From contig JAKBYX010000011.1 of NCBI GenBank assembly GCA_021840255.1, positions 3,015 to 67,014 of the forward strand: a stretch of 64,000 nt of DNA, in the 5' to 3' direction. Positions 24,126 through 49,116 of the stretch are shown piece after piece. Under the pieces are notes generated by a model. The model did no database searches. It saw nothing but the letters and a program-made list of their open reading frames with translations, and was not told the DNA's origin. The first letter of the stretch is position 1. Each line of letters begins with the position of its first letter. A program made the position numbers and the translations under genes. The stretch is from Nitrospirota bacterium. Its GTDB lineage: Bacteria; Nitrospirota; Thermodesulfovibrionia; Thermodesulfovibrionales; JdFR-88.

Positions 24126-24560
24126 ATGAGAAAGGCCGTCATTTACTCTGACGGGGCCTCGAGCGGCAATCCGGGGAAGGCTGGCATCGGCGGGGTCATA
24201 AGCGTGGGGGCGGACACCTTCGAGTTCTCGCGGTCAATAGGCATCGCCACAAACAATGTCGCCGAATATTCAGCGCTTATTGAGGCGTTAAAAAAAGCGG
24301 TCGAGATGGGCGCCACCGAAGCCCAGATATTTCTGGATTCCGAGCTGGTCGTAAGGCAGATAAACGGCCAGTATAAAGTAAAGCATGAAAATATAAAGCC
24401 CCTTTATGAGAAAGCAAAATCGCTGCTTTCTTCCTTTGAGAAATTCTCCGTGAGGCACATCCCCAGAGAGCAAAACAAGAGGGCTGACGCGCTCTCCAAA
24501 GAAGGGGTAAACGCCTCATACTGCCCCCCGGGGGGGACCTTTAAACAGGGCCTCTTTTAA
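24126..24560 (+). CDS. rnhA: Ribonuclease HI family protein
   Basis: YSDGASSGNPG.AG, TNNVAEY, DSELVVRQ.NG.YKVK, HIPREQNKRADAL. Confidence 0.92.
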   Translation: MRKAVIYSDGASSGNPGKAGIGGVISVGADTFEFSRSIGIATNNVAEYSALIEALKKAVEMGATEAQIFLDSELVVRQINGQYKVKHENIKPLYEKAKSLLSSFEKFSVRHIPREQNKRADALSKEGVNASYCPPGGTFKQGLF

Positions 24561-24648
24561 AAATGGGCAGCGAGCGCACCCCGAAGGGCAAGCGAGCGAA
24601 TATGATAGATCGTGAAATCCTCACATTCGATGCCCGGAGGGCATAAAA
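24561..24648 (+). repeat. 88-bp structured direct repeat, copy 1 (upstream of cobU)
   Basis: 83/88 identical to 25861-25948, ungapped, offset 1300 bp. Confidence 0.95.
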
Positions 24649-25163
24649 TGGGTGAGTTTGTATTTGTCCTAGGCGGCGCAAGAAGCGGCAAAAGCTCTTT
24701 CGCCTTGGGGGAGGCCTCAAAGATCACTGGTAAAAAGGCCTTTGTCGCAACCATGGAACCCGGAGACGATGAGCTCAAAGCCCGAATAAGCGCCCACCGC
24801 ACGGAGAGGGGGCCTGAATGGGAGACCTTCGAGGAACCCCTGCATCTTACCCCCCTGCTGAAGAAGATCGGTAGCCAGTACGATGTCATCCTCCTGGACT
24901 GTCTTACTCTCTGGCTTTCAAACCTGATGCTGCTGAATGAAGACAGACCGCTTAAAGACGAGGCAGGGGAGCTGATAAAGGCGTTAAAAAAAACCGTTTG
25001 CCCCGTCTTTGCCGTTTCAAACGAAGTGGGCATGGGGATAGTGCCCGGCACGGGGCTTGGCAGGGCATTCCGGGATGAGGCAGGAAGGCTCAACCGCCTT
25101 ATGGCCGGGGTCGCGGACAGGGTGTATCTGGTAGTGGCCGGCCTGCCCCAGAGGATAAAATGA
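24648..25163 (+). CDS. cobU: Adenosylcobinamide kinase / adenosylcobinamide-phosphate guanylyltransferase
   Basis: VLGGARSGKS, RI..HR..R...W.T.EEP, LDCLTLWLSN, VSNEVGMGIVP, FRDEAGRLN, VAGLP. Confidence 0.95.
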   Translation: MGEFVFVLGGARSGKSSFALGEASKITGKKAFVATMEPGDDELKARISAHRTERGPEWETFEEPLHLTPLLKKIGSQYDVILLDCLTLWLSNLMLLNEDRPLKDEAGELIKALKKTVCPVFAVSNEVGMGIVPGTGLGRAFRDEAGRLNRLMAGVADRVYLVVAGLPQRIK

Positions 25164-25164
25164 A

Positions 25165-25905
25165 ATGACCCCTTTCAGCCTTTTTCTGATAAGGCACGGA
25201 CGGACCGGGCTTGAGGGCCGTTACAAGGGGCAGATCGATGTGCCCCTGACGGCCAGGGGTGTAAAAGACATGGAGGCCTCAGCCCTTGTCCTTAAAAAGA
25301 TGCTGAAAGGCAAAAAGATAGACGCCATCTACTCGTCCGATCTTACCCGGGCCATCCAGAGCGCTGACGTGATCATGGAGAGGTTGGATGTAAGGAGGGT
25401 GACCCGGATGGAGCTCCTGAGAGAAAGGGCGTTTGGCGAATGGGAGGGGATGCGTTTTGACGAGATAGAAAAAAAATACCCCAGGGAGTTCGCCAGGTGG
25501 GTAAGCGACCCGTTCGTCAACAATCCGGTAGGGGGTGAGACGAGCAGCATGGTCAAACGGCGCGCCCTTCGCGCCCTTAAAGAGATAATGGGGCCAGAAA
25601 AAAAATTGCCTGGGGGCAGGGTGGCCGCAATAGTATCTCATAATGGCATATTAAGGACGCTGCTTTGCCATTTCCTGGGCATGCCGTACAGGAACATATT
25701 CAGGGTCTCTCTTGATTTCGGCTGCCTGAGCCTTGTGGAGATCTACGAGGACAGGACCCCGGTCGTCAAATTCATGAACTATTCGCTGATGGATCAAACA
25801 AAAACAAAAACAAAAACAAAAATAAAAAACCCAATTGATCATATTTCAGGGGCGAAGCAAAAATGGACAGCGGGCGTAACCCGAAGGGCAAGCGAGCGAA
25901 TATGA
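25165..25905 (+). CDS. cobC: Histidine phosphatase, probable alpha-ribazole phosphatase
   Basis: LIRHG, DVPL, YSSDL.RA, LRE..FGEWEG, GGE, VSHNG; cobalamin gene context. Confidence 0.82.
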   Translation: MTPFSLFLIRHGRTGLEGRYKGQIDVPLTARGVKDMEASALVLKKMLKGKKIDAIYSSDLTRAIQSADVIMERLDVRRVTRMELLRERAFGEWEGMRFDEIEKKYPREFARWVSDPFVNNPVGGETSSMVKRRALRALKEIMGPEKKLPGGRVAAIVSHNGILRTLLCHFLGMPYRNIFRVSLDFGCLSLVEIYEDRTPVVKFMNYSLMDQTKTKTKTKIKNPIDHISGAKQKWTAGVTRRASERI

Positions 25906-25948
25906 TAGATCGTGAATTCCTCACATTCGATGCCCGGAGGGCATAAAA
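25861..25948 (+). repeat. 88-bp structured direct repeat, copy 2 (upstream of cobQ; contains the cobC stop codon)
   Basis: 83/88 identical to 24561-24648. Confidence 0.95.
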
Positions 25949-25950
25949 AG

Positions 25951-27513
25951 ATGACAAAAGGCGCAGCGGCCCGGACATTAAGGTCTCTCATGGTACTTGG
26001 CACTGGTTCCGGCGTCGGGAAAAGCCTTATTGTGACCGGCCTTTTGCGGATATTCTCAGACATGGGATTTGATGCCGCCCCCTTCAAGGCGCAGAACATG
26101 GCGCTGAACTGCTTCATAACGAGAGACGGGGGAGAGATAGGCCGGGCGCAGGCGTTGCAGGCCGAGGCCGCAAGGGTCGAGGCCTCGACGGACATGAACC
26201 CGATTCTCCTTAAGGCAACAGGGGATGCCGGCTGCCAGGTAATAGCGGATGGCCGGTCGATCGGCAACATGACCGCCCGCGAGTACTATGCGTACGGGGT
26301 CGAAGCCTGGCGGATAGTGACCTCCGCATACCAGAGGCTTGCTGGGAAGCATGAGCTGATCGTAATGGAGGGAGCGGGCAGCCCTTCCGAGATAAACCTG
26401 ATGGACAAGGATATCGTGAACATGAGGATGGCAAAGCATGCCGGCGCGCCGGCCCTCCTGGTGGGCGATATAGAAAAAGGAGGCGTGTTCGCCTCCCTTT
26501 ACGGGACTTTTTTGCTTCAGGGTGCAGACAGCGGCCTGATACGGGGCTTCATAATCAACAAATTCAGGGGCGACATGGACATACTTACCCCCGGCCTCCA
26601 TATGCTGGCAGAGAAGACCGGGATGCCCTGTCTGGGCGTCCTGCCGTATATGAAGCACTCCCTTTCTGAAGAAGACTCCCTGTCGCTTTCGGAAGCAAGC
26701 CGCGGTTTTTCCCCGGGCGGGAAGGCGTTGAGGATTGTTGTGGTCAGAAACCGCTTCATATCCAACTTCACGGATTTCGAGCCCCTCGCGCTTGAGCCCG
26801 ACGTGGAGGTCATATATTCGCTGAGACCAAGGGAGATCGAAGGGGCCGATCTTGTCATCATACCCGGCTCCAAGAACACAAGCAGAGACCTGCTTTTTCT
26901 CCGGCAGTCCGGCGTGGAGGCGTCAATAAAAGAAGCGGTGAAAAAGAGTGTCCCGCTTATAGGGATGTGCGGCGGTTTTCAGATGCTTGGGCATGCCATA
27001 AAGGACCCTTTTGGAGTTGAAAGCGAATTCAAGGAGATAAAAGGCATGGGGCTTCTGGATATCGAGACAGTGCTTGAGGACCCGAAAGTGACGACTCAAG
27101 TTGAAGTCATAGAAGCGGCCCAGGCAGAAGCGGGGCAGGTAAAGGACACAGAGGCGGGCAGGGCTGAAAAAACAAAAAAAGTAAAAATCACGGGTTATGA
27201 GGTCCATATGGGGCGCTCCACCGGGGACATCGGCCTGTTCAAGCTTAAACGCCTGGCAACCGGGGAGGCCGTTCTGGACGGGTCCAGAAAAGCGGGTGTC
27301 TGGGGCACTTACATTCACGGTCTGTTTGATAACGATGCCTTCCGGGGCAGGCTTCTAAACGGTTTAAGGGCGCGCGCGGGTTTGCCGGAAAGGGAGAAGC
27401 CTGTCAACTATAGCGCAATAAAGGAAGAAGGCATTAATGCCCTGGCGGACGCGATCAGGGACAACCTGGACATGCGCTATATCGAAAGTCTCATAAAGCG
27501 ATGCACAGAATAA
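25951..27513 (+). CDS. cobQ: Cobyric acid synthase CobQ/CbiP
   Basis: GTGSGVGKS, PFKAQNM, EIGRAQ, MNPILLK, EGAGSP.EIN, ISNFTDF, PGSKNT, CGGFQMLG, GYEVHMG, GTYIHGLFDN. Confidence 0.96.
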   Translation: MTKGAAARTLRSLMVLGTGSGVGKSLIVTGLLRIFSDMGFDAAPFKAQNMALNCFITRDGGEIGRAQALQAEAARVEASTDMNPILLKATGDAGCQVIADGRSIGNMTAREYYAYGVEAWRIVTSAYQRLAGKHELIVMEGAGSPSEINLMDKDIVNMRMAKHAGAPALLVGDIEKGGVFASLYGTFLLQGADSGLIRGFIINKFRGDMDILTPGLHMLAEKTGMPCLGVLPYMKHSLSEEDSLSLSEASRGFSPGGKALRIVVVRNRFISNFTDFEPLALEPDVEVIYSLRPREIEGADLVIIPGSKNTSRDLLFLRQSGVEASIKEAVKKSVPLIGMCGGFQMLGHAIKDPFGVESEFKEIKGMGLLDIETVLEDPKVTTQVEVIEAAQAEAGQVKDTEAGRAEKTKKVKITGYEVHMGRSTGDIGLFKLKRLATGEAVLDGSRKAGVWGTYIHGLFDNDAFRGRLLNGLRARAGLPEREKPVNYSAIKEEGINALADAIRDNLDMRYIESLIKRCTE

Positions 27514-46146: not shown

Positions 46147-47241
46147 TCACCTCCTCAGATTGGGAGCTTTTTCTTTTTCTTTTTTGACTGTTGCAAGGAA
46201 CTCATCAAGAACCGGCGAGTGCCCTGCGGCTTCATCCAATGAAATCAGGTTCCTGTTCATAAGGTCGATAAGGGACTGGTTCATGGTCTGCATGCCCGAA
46301 TGCGACTGGCCGGTCTGCATGATGGAATATATCTGGTGCAGCTTGTCTTCCCTTATAAGGTTCCTTATGGCGGGTGTGGGTATGAGCACCTCAACAGCCA
46401 TCACCCTGCCGGGCCCGTTTTTTTTCGGTATGAGCTGCTGAGCAATTATGGCCTCAAGCACAAAAGAGAGCTGTACGCGGACCTGCTCCTGCTGGTGCGG
46501 GGGGAATACGTCCACTATCCTGTTTAATGACTGCACGGCGGAGTTTGTGTGCAGGGTGGCCAGCGTAAGGTGGCCTGTTTCCGAGACCGTGAGCGCAGCC
46601 TCTATGGTCTCCAGGTCCCGCATCTCGCCCACCAGGACCACATCCGGGTCCTGTCTCAGGATATGCCGTAGGGCGTTTTTAAAGGACAGGGTGTCGGCGT
46701 TCACTTCCCTCTGGTTTATGAGCGCTTTCTTGTGCATATGGAGGTATTCTATCGGGTCCTCCACCGTTATTATATGGCAGTGGCGCTCCGAGTTTATGAA
46801 ATCCACCATGGAGGCAAGAGTGGTGGATTTGCCGCATCCCGTGGGGCCGGTCACCAGGACAAGCCCGCGGGGCTTTCTCGCAACGTCGGTCAGGATATCC
46901 GGCAGTCCCAAGTCGCGGAAACTCTGCACGGCGAAGGACACGGACCGGAAGACCCCGGCCACGACCCCGCGCTGCATGAAGATGTTTCCCCTGAAGCGGC
47001 TGACCCCTTTTAAGCCGAAGGAAAAATCCAGCTCGCTTGTCTCCTCGAAATGGTGCTTCTGGTTGTCCGTAAGCACACTGTAGCAAAGACTCTTGGTGTC
47101 CTCCCCGTTCAGGACCTCCTGCTGTTCCATGGGCAAAAGGCTGCCGTCTATCCTGAGCCTGGGCGGGCTTCCGGTTGTGATATGGAGGTCGGAGGCCCCC
47201 CTGTCGACCATCGTCTTTAAAAGCTCATATAAAGAAACCAC
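46147..47241 (-). CDS. pilT: Type IV pilus retraction ATPase PilT
   Basis: ASDLHI, GPTGCGKSTT, LRQDPDV, TGHL..TLHT, AIRNLIRE motif. Confidence 0.95.
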   Translation of the reverse strand: MVSLYELLKTMVDRGASDLHITTGSPPRLRIDGSLLPMEQQEVLNGEDTKSLCYSVLTDNQKHHFEETSELDFSFGLKGVSRFRGNIFMQRGVVAGVFRSVSFAVQSFRDLGLPDILTDVARKPRGLVLVTGPTGCGKSTTLASMVDFINSERHCHIITVEDPIEYLHMHKKALINQREVNADTLSFKNALRHILRQDPDVVLVGEMRDLETIEAALTVSETGHLTLATLHTNSAVQSLNRIVDVFPPHQQEQVRVQLSFVLEAIIAQQLIPKKNGPGRVMAVEVLIPTPAIRNLIREDKLHQIYSIMQTGQSHSGMQTMNQSLIDLMNRNLISLDEAAGHSPVLDEFLATVKKEKEKAPNLRR

Positions 47242-47286: not shown

Positions 47287-49116
47287 CTAATCGCCGAAAG
47301 TGACCCTCAGGACCTCTTCTATGGAGGTGATCCCCTCCCGGACCTTGGACAGACCGCTCATGCGCAGGCTCCTCATCCCGGTGCTGATGGACAATTTTTT
47401 TATCTCGTCAGTGGGCGCCCCTTCGAGAATGAGCTGTTTCATCTCATCTCCCACCGGCATGACCTCATAAAGGGCCACCCTCCCTTTGTACCCGGAGCCG
47501 TTGCAGGCGGAGCACCCCTTCCCCTTGTACACCTTGAGCCCGTCCAGCTCTTCTTCCGGGAACCCCACCTTAAGCAGGGCCTGGCGCGGGGCGGGCTCCT
47601 CTTCCCTGCATTGCGTGCAGATCCTGCGGGCCAGTCTCTGGGCAAGGATGAGTATTACCGAACTTGAGACCAGGAAAGGTTCGATGCCCATGTTGAGGAG
47701 CCTGTTTATGGTCCCCGGGGCGTCATTGGTGTGGATCGTGCTTAGGACCAAATGGCCGGTGAGCGCAGCTTTCACGCCGATCTCCGCCGTTTCAAAGTCC
47801 CTTATCTCGCCCACCATGATTATGTCCGGGTCCTGTCTTAAAAAGGACCTCAGGGCGGAAGCGAATGTGAGCCCGATGTCCTCGCGGACATGCACCTGGT
47901 TAATACCCAGGAAGTTGTATTCCACCGGGTCCTCGGCGGTCATTATATTCGTTCCAGGCTTGTTCAGATAGTTCAGGGCCGAATACAAGGTGGTGGTCTT
48001 TCCGCTTCCGGTAGGGCCGGTGACCAGTATCATTCCGTACGGTTTGTCCAGGGCCGCCATGAAATCCCTGAGCGCTTTTTCATCAAACCCCAGCTTGGTA
48101 AGGTCCACCTGCAGATTGGCTTTGTCCAAAAGCCTCAAAACGGTCTTCTCGCCAAAAAGACACGGCAGCACAGAGACGCGGAAATCTATCTCCCTTTTTT
48201 TTCCCAGTTTCAGTTTTATCCTGCCGTCCTGGGGGAGCCTTCTTTCCGCTATGTCCAGCTTGGACATTATCTTGAGCCTGGATGTGAGGGCGGCCCTTAT
48301 TTTCAGAGGGAGGTTCATTACCGTATAGAGCACGCCGTCAACACGGTAGCGCACGCGAAGGGCCGTTTCATAAGGCTCTATGTGAATGTCGCTGGCCCGC
48401 GCCTTTATCGCGTTTACCAGGATGCCGTTTGCCAGCTTCACGATGGGGGCCTCGACATCCTTGACTACCTCCGTGTCTTCCCTTTCCTCCACGGCCTCGA
48501 TGTCGTCCAGCGCACTGCCGACCACCTTGTCGAACTCCTCCACGTCCACCATGGAATCAAGGGACATCCCTTCATCGCTGTCGTCAACAGCCTCTTTTTC
48601 CTCCATGACGAAATCTTTTGCCTCAAGGATCTTTGCGGTGGCCCCGCCATCGCCGGCTGACGCTGATTTTTCCTGCTGTTTTCCCGCCCCTCCGTAATAG
48701 CCGGTTATGGCAGATGATATATCGGTTTCCCCCGCAAGCACGACCTCCACGTTGTAGCCGGTCATGAATTTCACATCGTCTATGGCGAATACATTAGAGG
48801 GGTCCGCGCTTGCGATGGTGAGGGTTGCCCCCACCCTGAGGACCGGAACGATCTGGTATTTTTTTGCCATGTCGGCCGGAATAAGCTTGATTATGGCAGG
48901 GTCTATCTTTGTCTCGGACATCTTTATTGCCGCTATGCCGTATTGCCTGCTCAGGAAATTAAGAAGGTCTGCCTCGGTAATATAGCCAAGGTGGATAAGG
49001 GCGCTGCCCAGTCTCATCCCTTCGCGCCTTTGAAGGGCCAGGGCCTGTTTGAGTTGTTCTTCGGTAACTACCTGGAAGGAAAGGAGCATCTGGCCCAGCT
49101 TAGTAGTCGTCGACAT
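47287..49116 (-). CDS. pilB: Type IV-A pilus assembly ATPase PilB
   Basis: MshEN-like N-terminus (KLGQML, RLGSALI), ASDIHIEP, DIAERRLPQDG, GPTGSGKTTT, tetra-Cys motif. Confidence 0.95.
   Translation of the reverse strand: MSTTTKLGQMLLSFQVVTEEQLKQALALQRREGMRLGSALIHLGYITEADLLNFLSRQYGIAAIKMSETKIDPAIIKLIPADMAKKYQIVPVLRVGATLTIASADPSNVFAIDDVKFMTGYNVEVVLAGETDISSAITGYYGGAGKQQEKSASAGDGGATAKILEAKDFVMEEKEAVDDSDEGMSLDSMVDVEEFDKVVGSALDDIEAVEEREDTEVVKDVEAPIVKLANGILVNAIKARASDIHIEPYETALRVRYRVDGVLYTVMNLPLKIRAALTSRLKIMSKLDIAERRLPQDGRIKLKLGKKREIDFRVSVLPCLFGEKTVLRLLDKANLQVDLTKLGFDEKALRDFMAALDKPYGMILVTGPTGSGKTTTLYSALNYLNKPGTNIMTAEDPVEYNFLGINQVHVREDIGLTFASALRSFLRQDPDIIMVGEIRDFETAEIGVKAALTGHLVLSTIHTNDAPGTINRLLNMGIEPFLVSSSVILILAQRLARRICTQCREEEPAPRQALLKVGFPEEELDGLKVYKGKGCSACNGSGYKGRVALYEVMPVGDEMKQLILEGAPTDEIKKLSISTGMRSLRMSGLSKVREGITSIEEVLRVTFGD

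Follow-up and report, generated by a model that had tools for sequence, protein, structure and literature searches.

Two copies of a short structured repeat bracket cobU and a cobC-like gene in a 64,000-nucleotide stretch of a Nitrospirota genome (assembly GCA_021840255.1, contig JAKBYX010000011.1, positions 3,015 to 67,014 of the forward strand; hereafter the window). The locus comprises an RNase H-like gene (24126-24560), cobU for cobinamide kinase/guanylyltransferase (24648..25163, + strand; PF02283, 8.9e-56), a cobC-like histidine phosphatase gene (25165..25905, +; His_Phos_1, PF00300, 2.1e-47) and cobQ for cobyric acid synthase (25951..27513, +; PF07685 and PF01656), with cbiB and an aminotransferase gene also among the surrounding genes. 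The repeat precedes both cobU and cobQ. Its two copies are recent insertions of a lineage-specific, non-coding interspersed repeat of a Nitrospirota genus, which lies within an order-wide superfamily of patchy distribution. We show that the element is dispersed in many copies, is polymorphic for insertion between congeners, is biased in both position and orientation, contains a covarying hairpin, and is enriched for GGAGG where it adjoins start codons. It is thus very probably a dispersed, insertion-polymorphic repeat rather than a cobamide regulator.

The two cob copies are nearly identical in sequence. A repeat search recovers an ungapped direct repeat at 24559-24648 and 25859-25948, which is 90 nt long with 5 mismatches (94% identity) and 1300 bp from start to start. 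This confirms a preliminary description of the locus, made from the sequence alone, which had reported two ungapped copies of about 88 nt around cobU-cobC. The pair is the longest direct repeat family within the 64-kb window. Copy 1 (24561..24648, +; nhmmer 82.4 bits, model positions 1-88) occupies the entire spacer from the stop codon of the RNase H-like gene (TAA 24558-24560) to the cobU ATG (24648-24650). Copy 2 (25861..25948, +; 82.1 bits) separates the cobC-like gene from cobQ, stopping 2 nt short of the cobQ ATG (25951). The two copies are each other's closest relatives (94% identity, versus at most 92% for any other BLAST match) and have the same variable region, which fits a local second insertion.

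Each cob copy carries two hairpins on the + strand. The 5' hairpin, CCC-GAA-GGG, is read from the sequence at 24580..24588 in copy 1, where two GCGAGCG words flank it, and at 25880..25888 in copy 2. The 3' hairpin, ATGCCC-GGA-GGGCAT, lies at 24630..24644 in copy 1, where it is predicted in both RNA and DNA folds (-8.4 kcal/mol as RNA), and at 25930..25944 in copy 2, where folding and covariation point to it. GGAGG falls within this hairpin: in copy 1 (24636-24640) it extends from the loop into the 3' arm and stands 7 nt ahead of the cobU ATG, and in copy 2 (25936-25940) it is 10 nt ahead of the cobQ ATG, so that the coordinates bear out the spacings reported earlier. Both copies also contain a mini open reading frame (mini-ORF) of 27 codons on the + strand, which runs from an ATG at the 5' end of the element to a TAA at its 3' end (24563..24646 in copy 1; 25863-25946 in copy 2).

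The cobC-like ORF has an A-rich C-terminal tail, reads 45 nt into copy 2 and terminates there at TGA 25903-25905; the repeat does, as previously stated, provide its stop codon. This TGA overlaps an in-frame ATG of the mini-ORF (ATGA 25902-25905). Just before copy 2, an A-rich (CAAAAA)n tract (window 25794-25837) encodes the KTKTKTKIKN-like tail of the cobC-like ORF; the G001 orthologue, from a congeneric genome, ends differently. The longest-ORF call for cobU begins at a GTG (24612) inside the repeat, but it is the ATG at 24648 that G001 shares as a start. Alignment with G001 likewise places the cobQ ATG opposite a GTG, by hand reading. Automatic annotation beside these repeats may over-extend genes, and gene starts there need care.

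Contigs from public runs bridge all four copy junctions with 0 differences: X1 rec.3 (24344-24609), X2 rec.11 (24344-24648) and X1 rec.5 (24619-25485) around copy 1, and X1 rec.7 (25475-25909), X3 rec.23 (25880-26200) and X5 rec.29 (25706-25975; a second study, covering the whole of copy 2) around copy 2. The best holders are possibly the source sample, in which case they are not independent. On this evidence the pair is not an assembly artefact, a possibility that the preliminary description had raised. It had also suggested that the two copies might allow excision or amplification of cobU-cobC. This finds no support, as no joint of that kind occurs in contigs of 4 runs, in which rare variants would be invisible. 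Read depth is several-fold higher on the repeat bins, as expected of multi-copy sequence. Elsewhere in the window, a second direct repeat of 69 nt (46607-46675 and 47789-47857; 72% identity, 1182 bp apart) probably reflects two paralogous genes.

The repeat is dispersed throughout its genome. In the window's own assembly (G000; 2.2 Mb, 29 contigs, 76% complete), a BLAST search with copy 1 gave 49 matches on many contigs and both strands, and an iterated nhmmer search gave 70 hits, 51 of them full-length, at 62 loci. These loci comprise 55 single copies, 6 doubles and 1 triple head-to-tail array (arrays at 7/62). From 5' to 3', the element consists of AAATGGRYAGCGAGCG, an optional CCC-GAA-GGG hairpin, CAAGCGAGCGAAT, about 22 variable nt, TCCYTRCATTCGAT, a hairpin ATGCCC-GNA-GGGCAT, and AAAA, which together make a two-module unit of 78-120 nt. 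Its middle region is hypervariable among copies, and tandem copies have the AAAA in common. The two hairpins are related to each other and lie on one strand, the 5' one about 20 nt from the 5' end and the 3' one 4 nt from the 3' end. The 5' hairpin has been deleted in about 20 of the 70 copies, in two different ways, and the short variants without it have multiplied. There are no terminal inverted repeats (TIRs): the reverse complement of the 5' end, AAATGGATAGCG, does not give the 3' end, GGGCATAAAA. Our literature search on repetitive and intergenic repeats of Nitrospirae found no description of this family among the listings examined. Some copies form composite repeats: those of one subfamily in a second congener, G002 (L070, L071, L074, L075 and L079), are always followed by a conserved TCGCGGCATACGGCGTCA… sequence, which also occurs in G000 (C17:188839-188941).

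The genomic neighbours of the element are not those of a cobamide regulator. Start-adjacent copies precede genes for an E1 dehydrogenase, a glycosyltransferase, an ABC-2 permease, an M50 peptidase, a NuoE-like ferredoxin, RuvA and a radical-SAM aminomutase, none of which is a cobalamin gene. With some 70 copies beside unrelated, non-cobalamin genes, the riboswitch reading is removed. Confinement to cobalamin genes had been named in the preliminary description as the feature that would separate a riboswitch from a mobile repeat, and the many unrelated contexts found genome-wide favor the latter.

Only one helix of the element is supported by covariation. Structure counts were made on an alignment (A3) of 58 distinct copies from three genomes, on which RNAalifold retains the 3' hairpin alone. 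In this hairpin 94.5% of cells are paired, and 3 of its 6 pairs have changed on both sides (e.g., G-C to U-A in 7 copies); 1 of the 3 pairs of the 5' hairpin has done so. Covariation reaches 0.113 versus 0.058 in shuffles, a value that 0 of 500 shuffles attain and that exceeds all slid registers, with the qualification that element copies share descent, so that these figures overstate independence. A middle stem, CGAAT/ATTCG, was rejected as unsupported (84.5% paired, with 0 pairs changed on both sides). The ATCG..GTGA/TCAC..CGAT stem described earlier sits in the variable region of the family, and the part of it that is conserved is this uncompensated CGAAT/ATTCG. Thus, of the earlier observation that the five differences between the cob copies avoid all stems, the part concerning the two GNA-loop hairpins stands, and the middle stem itself is not confirmed. 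A search of Rfam matched no family, either at gathering thresholds or at E<=10, in agreement with the earlier remark that the element lacks a cobalamin riboswitch motif.

Element copies are oriented with the genes around them. Among co-directional contexts in G000, 28 loci are sense and 7 antisense (p=5e-4; crude ORF calls). The other loci fall between divergent gene pairs (15), between convergent pairs (7) or within crude ORFs (5). Replication-strand bias is a weaker predictor of element strand: the split by local GC skew (32:20) is not significant, and is confounded by coding-strand composition.

The ends of the element often coincide with stop and start codons. We counted stop-adjacency as a same-strand open frame of >=120 codons ending between -20 and the element interior, and start-adjacency as a start codon that opens >=100 codons within -3..+15 nt of the 3' end. 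An upstream same-strand ORF stops at the 5' edge in 24 of the 55 copies with intact 5' ends, with most of the stops at -3 to -1 (AAATG directly preceded by TAA or TGA), +3 (AAATGA variants) or +7 (GGATAG). A start codon follows the 3' AAAA in 14 of the 64 copies with intact 3' ends, 3 of which are doubtful. Controls gave 5/55 for the 5' end read outward in antisense, and 502/5000 (10%) for random intergenic positions. In 8 copies the element makes up the entire stop-to-start spacer. At ruvA, the junction creates the ATG (the last A of the element plus TG), and the Pfam match extends from the very first residue encoded there.

Insertions are polymorphic between species of the genus. The congener G001 keeps the RNaseH-cobU-cobC-cobQ order, with both spacers shorter and neither copy present. 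Site 1 is empty in G001, where it reads CCTGTTTTAAATTAAAAATGGGTGAG, and filled in G000, where it reads CCTCTTTTAAAAATGGG[CAGCG...GGGCATAAAATGGG]TGAG; the insertion is clean, and each junction carries AAAATGGG. Site 2, where diverged flanks align poorly by automatic means, was read by hand: GGGGCGAAGCAAAAA-[element]-AGATGACAAAAGGC in G000 corresponds to GGGCGGAACAAAGAAAGTGAGCAAAGGC in G001. The element here lies directly 5' of the cobQ start, and is also missing at the collinear site of G006. Four further G000 copies, each occupying a stop-to-start spacer, are lacking in G001 and G002 alike, so that 6/6 tested G000 copies have an empty congener counterpart. At C10:105511, the empty site reads TCTAAAATAAAATGAGCCGC, and in the filled site ATAAAATGA flanks the element on either side. 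The site at C26:26077 is CTGGAAAGCGGAAGATGAG when empty, and only AAA is common to its junctions; here the element has taken the place of the final codons of an upstream gene, the TGA of which had overlapped the ATG that follows. The flanks of the other two (C9:70801 and C4:252355) have diverged.

The reciprocal comparison gives the same picture. We retrieved 35 G001 and G002 copy loci, for 16 of which both flanks map to a single G000 contig. Among these 16, the G001 copies L052, L054, L055, L058 and L059 have clean empty sites in G000, and only 2 loci (L048 and L070) looked common to the congeners. Thus, element turnover between species of one genus is nearly complete.

Insertion junctions are A-rich and variable in length. 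The sequence common to both junctions is 3-9 nt (AAA, AAAATGGG or ATAAAATGA), which could reflect either a target preference combined with a 3-bp duplication of AAA or a core whose length varies. An ATG is formed with the flank at the 3' junction in 13 of 45 non-tandem copies. The bases beyond this ATG resemble the 5' end of the same copy more than expected (3.0 versus 2.26 of 6 nt in permuted pairs, p=0.004, 13 copies), a signal driven partly by truncated second copies in the flanks. One copy departs from the usual hairpin sequence. In L059 of G001, compared with G000 C15:17733-17736, native flank sequence (AAGCT) forms the 3' hairpin arm, and the 5' arm has become complementary to it (AGCTT). 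This hairpin is rebuilt with host sequence, possibly by templated (quasi-palindrome) correction.

GGAGG is enriched where the element meets a start codon. It occurs in 17/64 copies, arises only with a GGA loop, and is not a conserved feature of the family. It is present in 8 of the 14 start-adjacent G000 copies versus 9 of the 50 others (Fisher p=0.006), and in 8/11 versus 9/53 once the three doubtful starts are removed. The G001 and G002 copies replicate this result (3/6 start-adjacent versus 1/29 others, p=0.011). Start-adjacent copies with GGAGG span several subfamilies (long, short and GAGGCCC-type). The enrichment could arise because selection keeps GGAGG, because only copies with GGAGG survive, or because a subfamily prefers these targets; all three readings imply that the Shine-Dalgarno (SD) sequence matters at starts. 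This partly supports the idea of a portable ribosome-binding site (RBS) carried on a mobile repeat, which the preliminary description had offered as its alternative. Mobility is borne out by insertion polymorphism, start abutment in 14/64 copies and the GGAGG enrichment point the same way, and this alternative is largely supported, with the co-opted RBS function as its inferred part.

The mini-ORF is not a general property of the family. It is intact in 12 of the 51 full-length copies, both cob copies included; the 51 divide 26/16/9 by length modulo 3. We therefore rejected it as a conserved family feature, and translational coupling through the mini-ORF is not the general mode of the family.

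Related elements occur across the order. BLAST finds the element in the genus (dozens of copies in G001 and G002) and in one other genus of the same family. A covariance model built from A3 and applied to 120 genomes of the order detects a wider superfamily in 24 of them, including several multi-copy genomes: at least 34 copies in G010, 25 in G028, 21 in G008, 16 in G022, and 10 each in G006 and G098, among others, all of these counts being lower bounds because at most 36 candidates were scored in any one genome. Distant copies keep AAATGGATAGCGAGCG, CAAGCGAGCGAAT and TCCTTACATT[C/A]GAT nearly unchanged, while both of their hairpins are longer and of other sequence, and their 3' end reads AGATCAAT. 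All of the distant 5' flanks that we fetched read TAA-ATGG (11/11). The two hairpins of one distant element are near-copies of each other, and derivatives with one hairpin exist, which explains why 5' blocks outnumber 3' blocks (77 versus 16 in G028, 49 versus 19 in G008, and 25 versus 3 in G022; reversed-pattern controls 0-2). That the single-stranded blocks are conserved while the stems next to them vary suggests that a conserved factor, specific for both sequence and structure, recognizes the element.

Exact matches to the element are rare in public contigs. A scan of public contigs for an exact 25-mer found 2 loci in genome contigs and 2 in metagenome contigs, and both metagenome matches are 100% identical to G000 contig C26 and add nothing. 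Few public exact matches thus mean that the exact 25-mer is rare, although the covariance model finds a wider family. G009 holds a lone high-scoring copy of G000 type (C82:4469-4551, L116; 83 bits) and otherwise none in the covariance-model search, which may be a transfer or a contaminating contig. Tandem long-form elements in G028 are interrupted precisely at their TCAAT junction by another repeat, about 150 nt long (AATAATATTTTTTTACCCC…CTTTACCAATTT), which has TCAAT on either side (L124, L127 and L128) and looks like a second small element with the first as its target. Also in G028, two 5' blocks stand head-to-head as a perfect palindrome (AAATGGATAGCGAGCGGATGTG-CT-CACATCCGCTCGCTATCCATTT; L126:144-189).

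The element resembles several known systems without belonging to them. By analogy, its closest counterparts are MIRUs in placement, and Neisseria REP2 and Borrelia IR-A in RBS-bearing design. According to two sources (PMC12548453, PMC3184786), MIRUs are regarded as mobile units, which 'insert themselves at start codons', contain a coupled internal ORF and do little harm. On that account, MIRUs and the element are alike as non-coding units of 40-100 bp, present in tens of copies, which lie in operon spacers in the orientation of the genes, form head-to-tail arrays and overlap the stop and start codons of their neighbors at their ends; in the element, this last overlap holds for a large minority of copies, not all. 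They differ in that there is no sequence relation, the phylum is another one, the element ORF is intact in only 12/51 copies, an SD-bearing hairpin rather than a -4 overlap recurs, and many element copies are not intercistronic. Neisseria REP2 and Borrelia IR-A/IR-B, as presented in PMC3184786, have no TIRs, two stem-loops, and an RBS plus ATG, and stand directly upstream of genes. The element shares with them the lack of TIRs and the two internal stem-loops, and may share the RBS with ATG, in that GGAGG, present in 17/64 copies, is enriched at starts and 13/45 copies form an ATG with the flank. REP2, according to the same source, is 120-150 bp long, carries a promoter and precedes a co-regulated gene set, whereas the genes downstream of the element are unrelated.

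Systems defined by their hairpins resemble the element less. Like IS200/IS605 palindrome-associated elements and REP/RAYT (REPIN) sequences, it is hairpin-bearing, TIR-less and strand-asymmetric, and lies beside a short conserved target; same-strand subterminal hairpins at both ends are true of its full-length copies, while variants without the 5' hairpin have multiplied. Unlike these systems, it has no element-flanked Y1 gene and no inverted REP doublets, and its 5' hairpin is dispensable. In PMC11893778, NTS/SRM sequences are hairpins of the ATTCCC...GGGAAT type that flank small GIY-YIG genes. Oriented multi-copy hairpins of this type are common to both, but SRM/NTS are hairpins of 20-50 nt and the element is a two-module unit of 78-120 nt, in which the SRM pattern occurs in 0/70 copies. 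The cobalamin riboswitch (RF00174) shares with the element a position upstream of cobamide genes, at this locus only; the element does not match its model, lacks a B12 box and is not restricted to B12 genes. It fails the tests that define a riboswitch, MITE, REPIN, IS200/IS605 derivative and SRM. The earlier possibility of a known Rfam or MITE family is answered by the lack of an Rfam match and of TIRs.

We propose the following route for the element. It is mobile now, or was so recently, and inserts one way into A-rich sites (AAA, often in a T[AG]A-AAA-TG stop/start junction), leaving 3-9 nt common to the junctions (AAA up to ATAAAATGA). Insertion at stop/start junctions in one orientation typically leaves the element co-oriented with its neighbors, running from the upstream stop and/or to the downstream start, and successive insertions at its own 5' boundary generate head-to-tail arrays. 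Both cob insertions followed the split from the congener, one between the RNase H-like gene and cobU, and the other 5' of cobQ, where it took the place of the last part of the cobC-like ORF. The 3' hairpin would then contribute the only SD-like sequence (GGAGG) 7 and 10 nt from the cobU and cobQ starts, so that the element would act as their ribosome-binding region; we lean slightly toward such a role at these two genes. Copies before start codons would survive preferentially with a GGA loop.

Several results weigh against this proposal. Whole-element folding on the sense strand is no better than that of shuffles (z = -0.4 and -0.1), compared with z = -2.25 and -1.0 on the antisense strand, and mismatches in the 3' hairpin (13 G.T versus 7 A.C) do not tell which strand folds. 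GGAGG is half buried in the -8.4 kcal/mol hairpin, and could hinder rather than help initiation. Its enrichment counts kin copies rather than independent events, and could reflect a target preference of subfamilies. Gene calls in G000 come from a crude longest-ORF heuristic, which makes start positions approximate except where checked. As the junction length is variable, neither a fixed target-site duplication nor a model without duplication is established. Among Y1/RAYT, TnpB, IS110, reverse transcriptase (RT) and Ssn-type GIY-YIG genes, we found no mobilizing partner, and the genomes searched showed no longer element or parent insertion sequence bounded by both ends and no far-apart pairing of 5' and 3' ends. 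TnpB was found in 0/11 genomes, the distributions of RT and IS110 do not track element carriers, the carrier G002 yielded no Y1 gene, and the element occurs at 0/10 of the Y1 loci of relatives. That the 5' hairpin is dispensable and short variants have multiplied argues against a two-hairpin mechanism of the IS200/IS605 type.

The preliminary description offered, as one of its two readings, an undescribed cis-regulatory RNA, a new cobamide-responsive riboswitch class that controls cobU and cobQ through an SD-sequestering hairpin. Both window copies do precede cobamide genes and their hairpin does contain the SD sequence; the 70 hits at 62 loci beside unrelated genes, the 7 of 35 co-directional loci in antisense, the 7 loci between convergent genes and the absence of the element from the cob locus of G001 and, at the cobQ site, of G006 make this idea extremely improbable, as do covariation confined to a single short hairpin, the hypervariable middle region and the lack of an Rfam match. 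A different possibility is that the element is a domesticated or selected RNA module, transcribed in operons as an intercistronic cassette for translation initiation or coupling, as proposed for MIRUs. The 28:7 sense bias, the 8 copies that form whole spacers, the GGAGG enrichment in two genome sets, the intact mini-ORF in both cob copies with its TGA overlap in copy 2, and single-stranded blocks that are nearly invariant across families of the order while stems vary all speak for it, together with the MIRU precedent in PMC12548453. It has to contend with the loss of the mini-ORF from most full-length copies and their spread over all three length classes, with 50/64 copies that lie away from a start codon, and with GGAGG in just 17/64. 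Near-total turnover between congeners further argues against a conserved function at any locus. We regard domestication as possible, and rather doubtful on balance.

Spread by single-strand chemistry could take two forms. A non-autonomous derivative of a single-strand (HUH, Y1) transposon, either an IS200/IS605-type palindrome-associated element or a RAYT-mobilized REP, would account for the asymmetric ends without TIRs, the two related same-strand hairpins, one near each end, and orientation-specific insertion beside a short A-rich target. Y1 genes also exist in the family, with 3 in G001 and a broken one in G000. This gene (L040:1447-1971, - strand; C29, about 124.8-125.4 kb) is RAYT/IS200-like with an in-frame TGA (…TTDIF*KRIPARF…), precedes a 34-nt repeat in two tandem copies, AATCTGGGATGTGTCCCTAGTATTTTTACGCT, unrelated to the element, and has only a partial element copy about 1.2 kb away. 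Y1 genes are moreover present in the non-carriers G004 and G007 and in G009, with its single element match; there are no inverted REP doublets, and orientation follows genes more than GC skew. A Y1 origin is accordingly unlikely. Less likely still is that the element is a target repeat of a small GIY-YIG single-strand nuclease of the Ssn family with a divergent Ssn-related motif. Its many copies with ATTCCC...GGGAAT hairpins and oriented non-palindromic flanks do recall NTS/dRS3 as described in PMC11893778, and small stand-alone GIY-YIG ORFs occur in the carriers G001, G003, G006 and G008 and were not found in G004, G005 and G007, which have no element, or in G009. They were not found either in the carriers G000, G002 and G010, all incomplete genomes, and the element lies at 0/7 small GIY-YIG loci (model R1). 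The published SRM pattern is not enriched in G000 (20 hits versus 14 in a reversed control), and NTS hits number 0. One GIY-YIG gene in G001 (L134 on C59, match 1501-1722, - strand) is surrounded by at least five ATTCCCGCG-CAG-GCGGGAA hairpins (at 1303, 1412, 1762, 1971 and 2236). This looks like a genuine Ssn/NTS-type nuclease-plus-repeat locus, whose hairpins differ from the element and constitute a different repeat. A nuclease or HUH transposase close to the repeat, named in the preliminary description as a sign of a mobile repeat, was not found, in that neither the 10 Y1 loci of relatives nor the 7 small GIY-YIG loci carry the element and the broken G000 gene has only the partial copy. About as improbable as the Ssn reading is enzyme-free spread, by template switching or microhomology-mediated copying between A-rich junctions, in which the AAATG start and AAAA(TG) end would let a nascent strand switch in and out. 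We keep it as a minor rival because the junction homology is variable and the L059 hairpin was rebuilt with its flank; the junction, moreover, always matches the element's own end-to-end junction, tandem arrays have AAAA in common and no transposase was found. Dozens of dispersed, mostly single insertions and a patchy multi-copy presence across the order are more than such copying usually yields, and there is no direct evidence for it. Our best guess for a TIR-less, orientation-specific repeat is a single-strand, hairpin-recognizing mechanism, Ssn-like or HUH-like, with any particular chemistry being improbable when taken alone.

Returning to the element as a mobile repeat, two of its features are notable: junction-targeted insertion and SD enrichment in start-adjacent copies. 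We tentatively suggest that it may be a mobile unit specialized for operon junctions. Such a unit would recognize T[AG]A-AAA-TG, including ATGA overlaps, and insert in sense, duplicating the junction so that the upstream stop and downstream start are kept. Its own SD hairpin, with a bridging mini-ORF in young copies, would keep the downstream gene translated. This would be an independent, MIRU-like 'harmless insertion' strategy in Nitrospirota, driven by a putative single-strand DNA enzyme that recognizes near-invariant GCGAGCG blocks next to variable hairpins throughout the order.

These results have consequences for annotation and for the biology of the order. The name riboswitch should not be given to the structured element before cobU and cobQ. 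Throughout the order, single-stranded blocks are conserved beside hairpins that vary, which points to a putative DNA or RNA enzyme specific for sequence and structure. The family offers a clean natural experiment in how a small repeat can settle between a stop and a start codon without breaking an operon, and the enrichment of GGAGG at starts is a testable sign that a mobile repeat can replace the ribosome-binding site of a gene.

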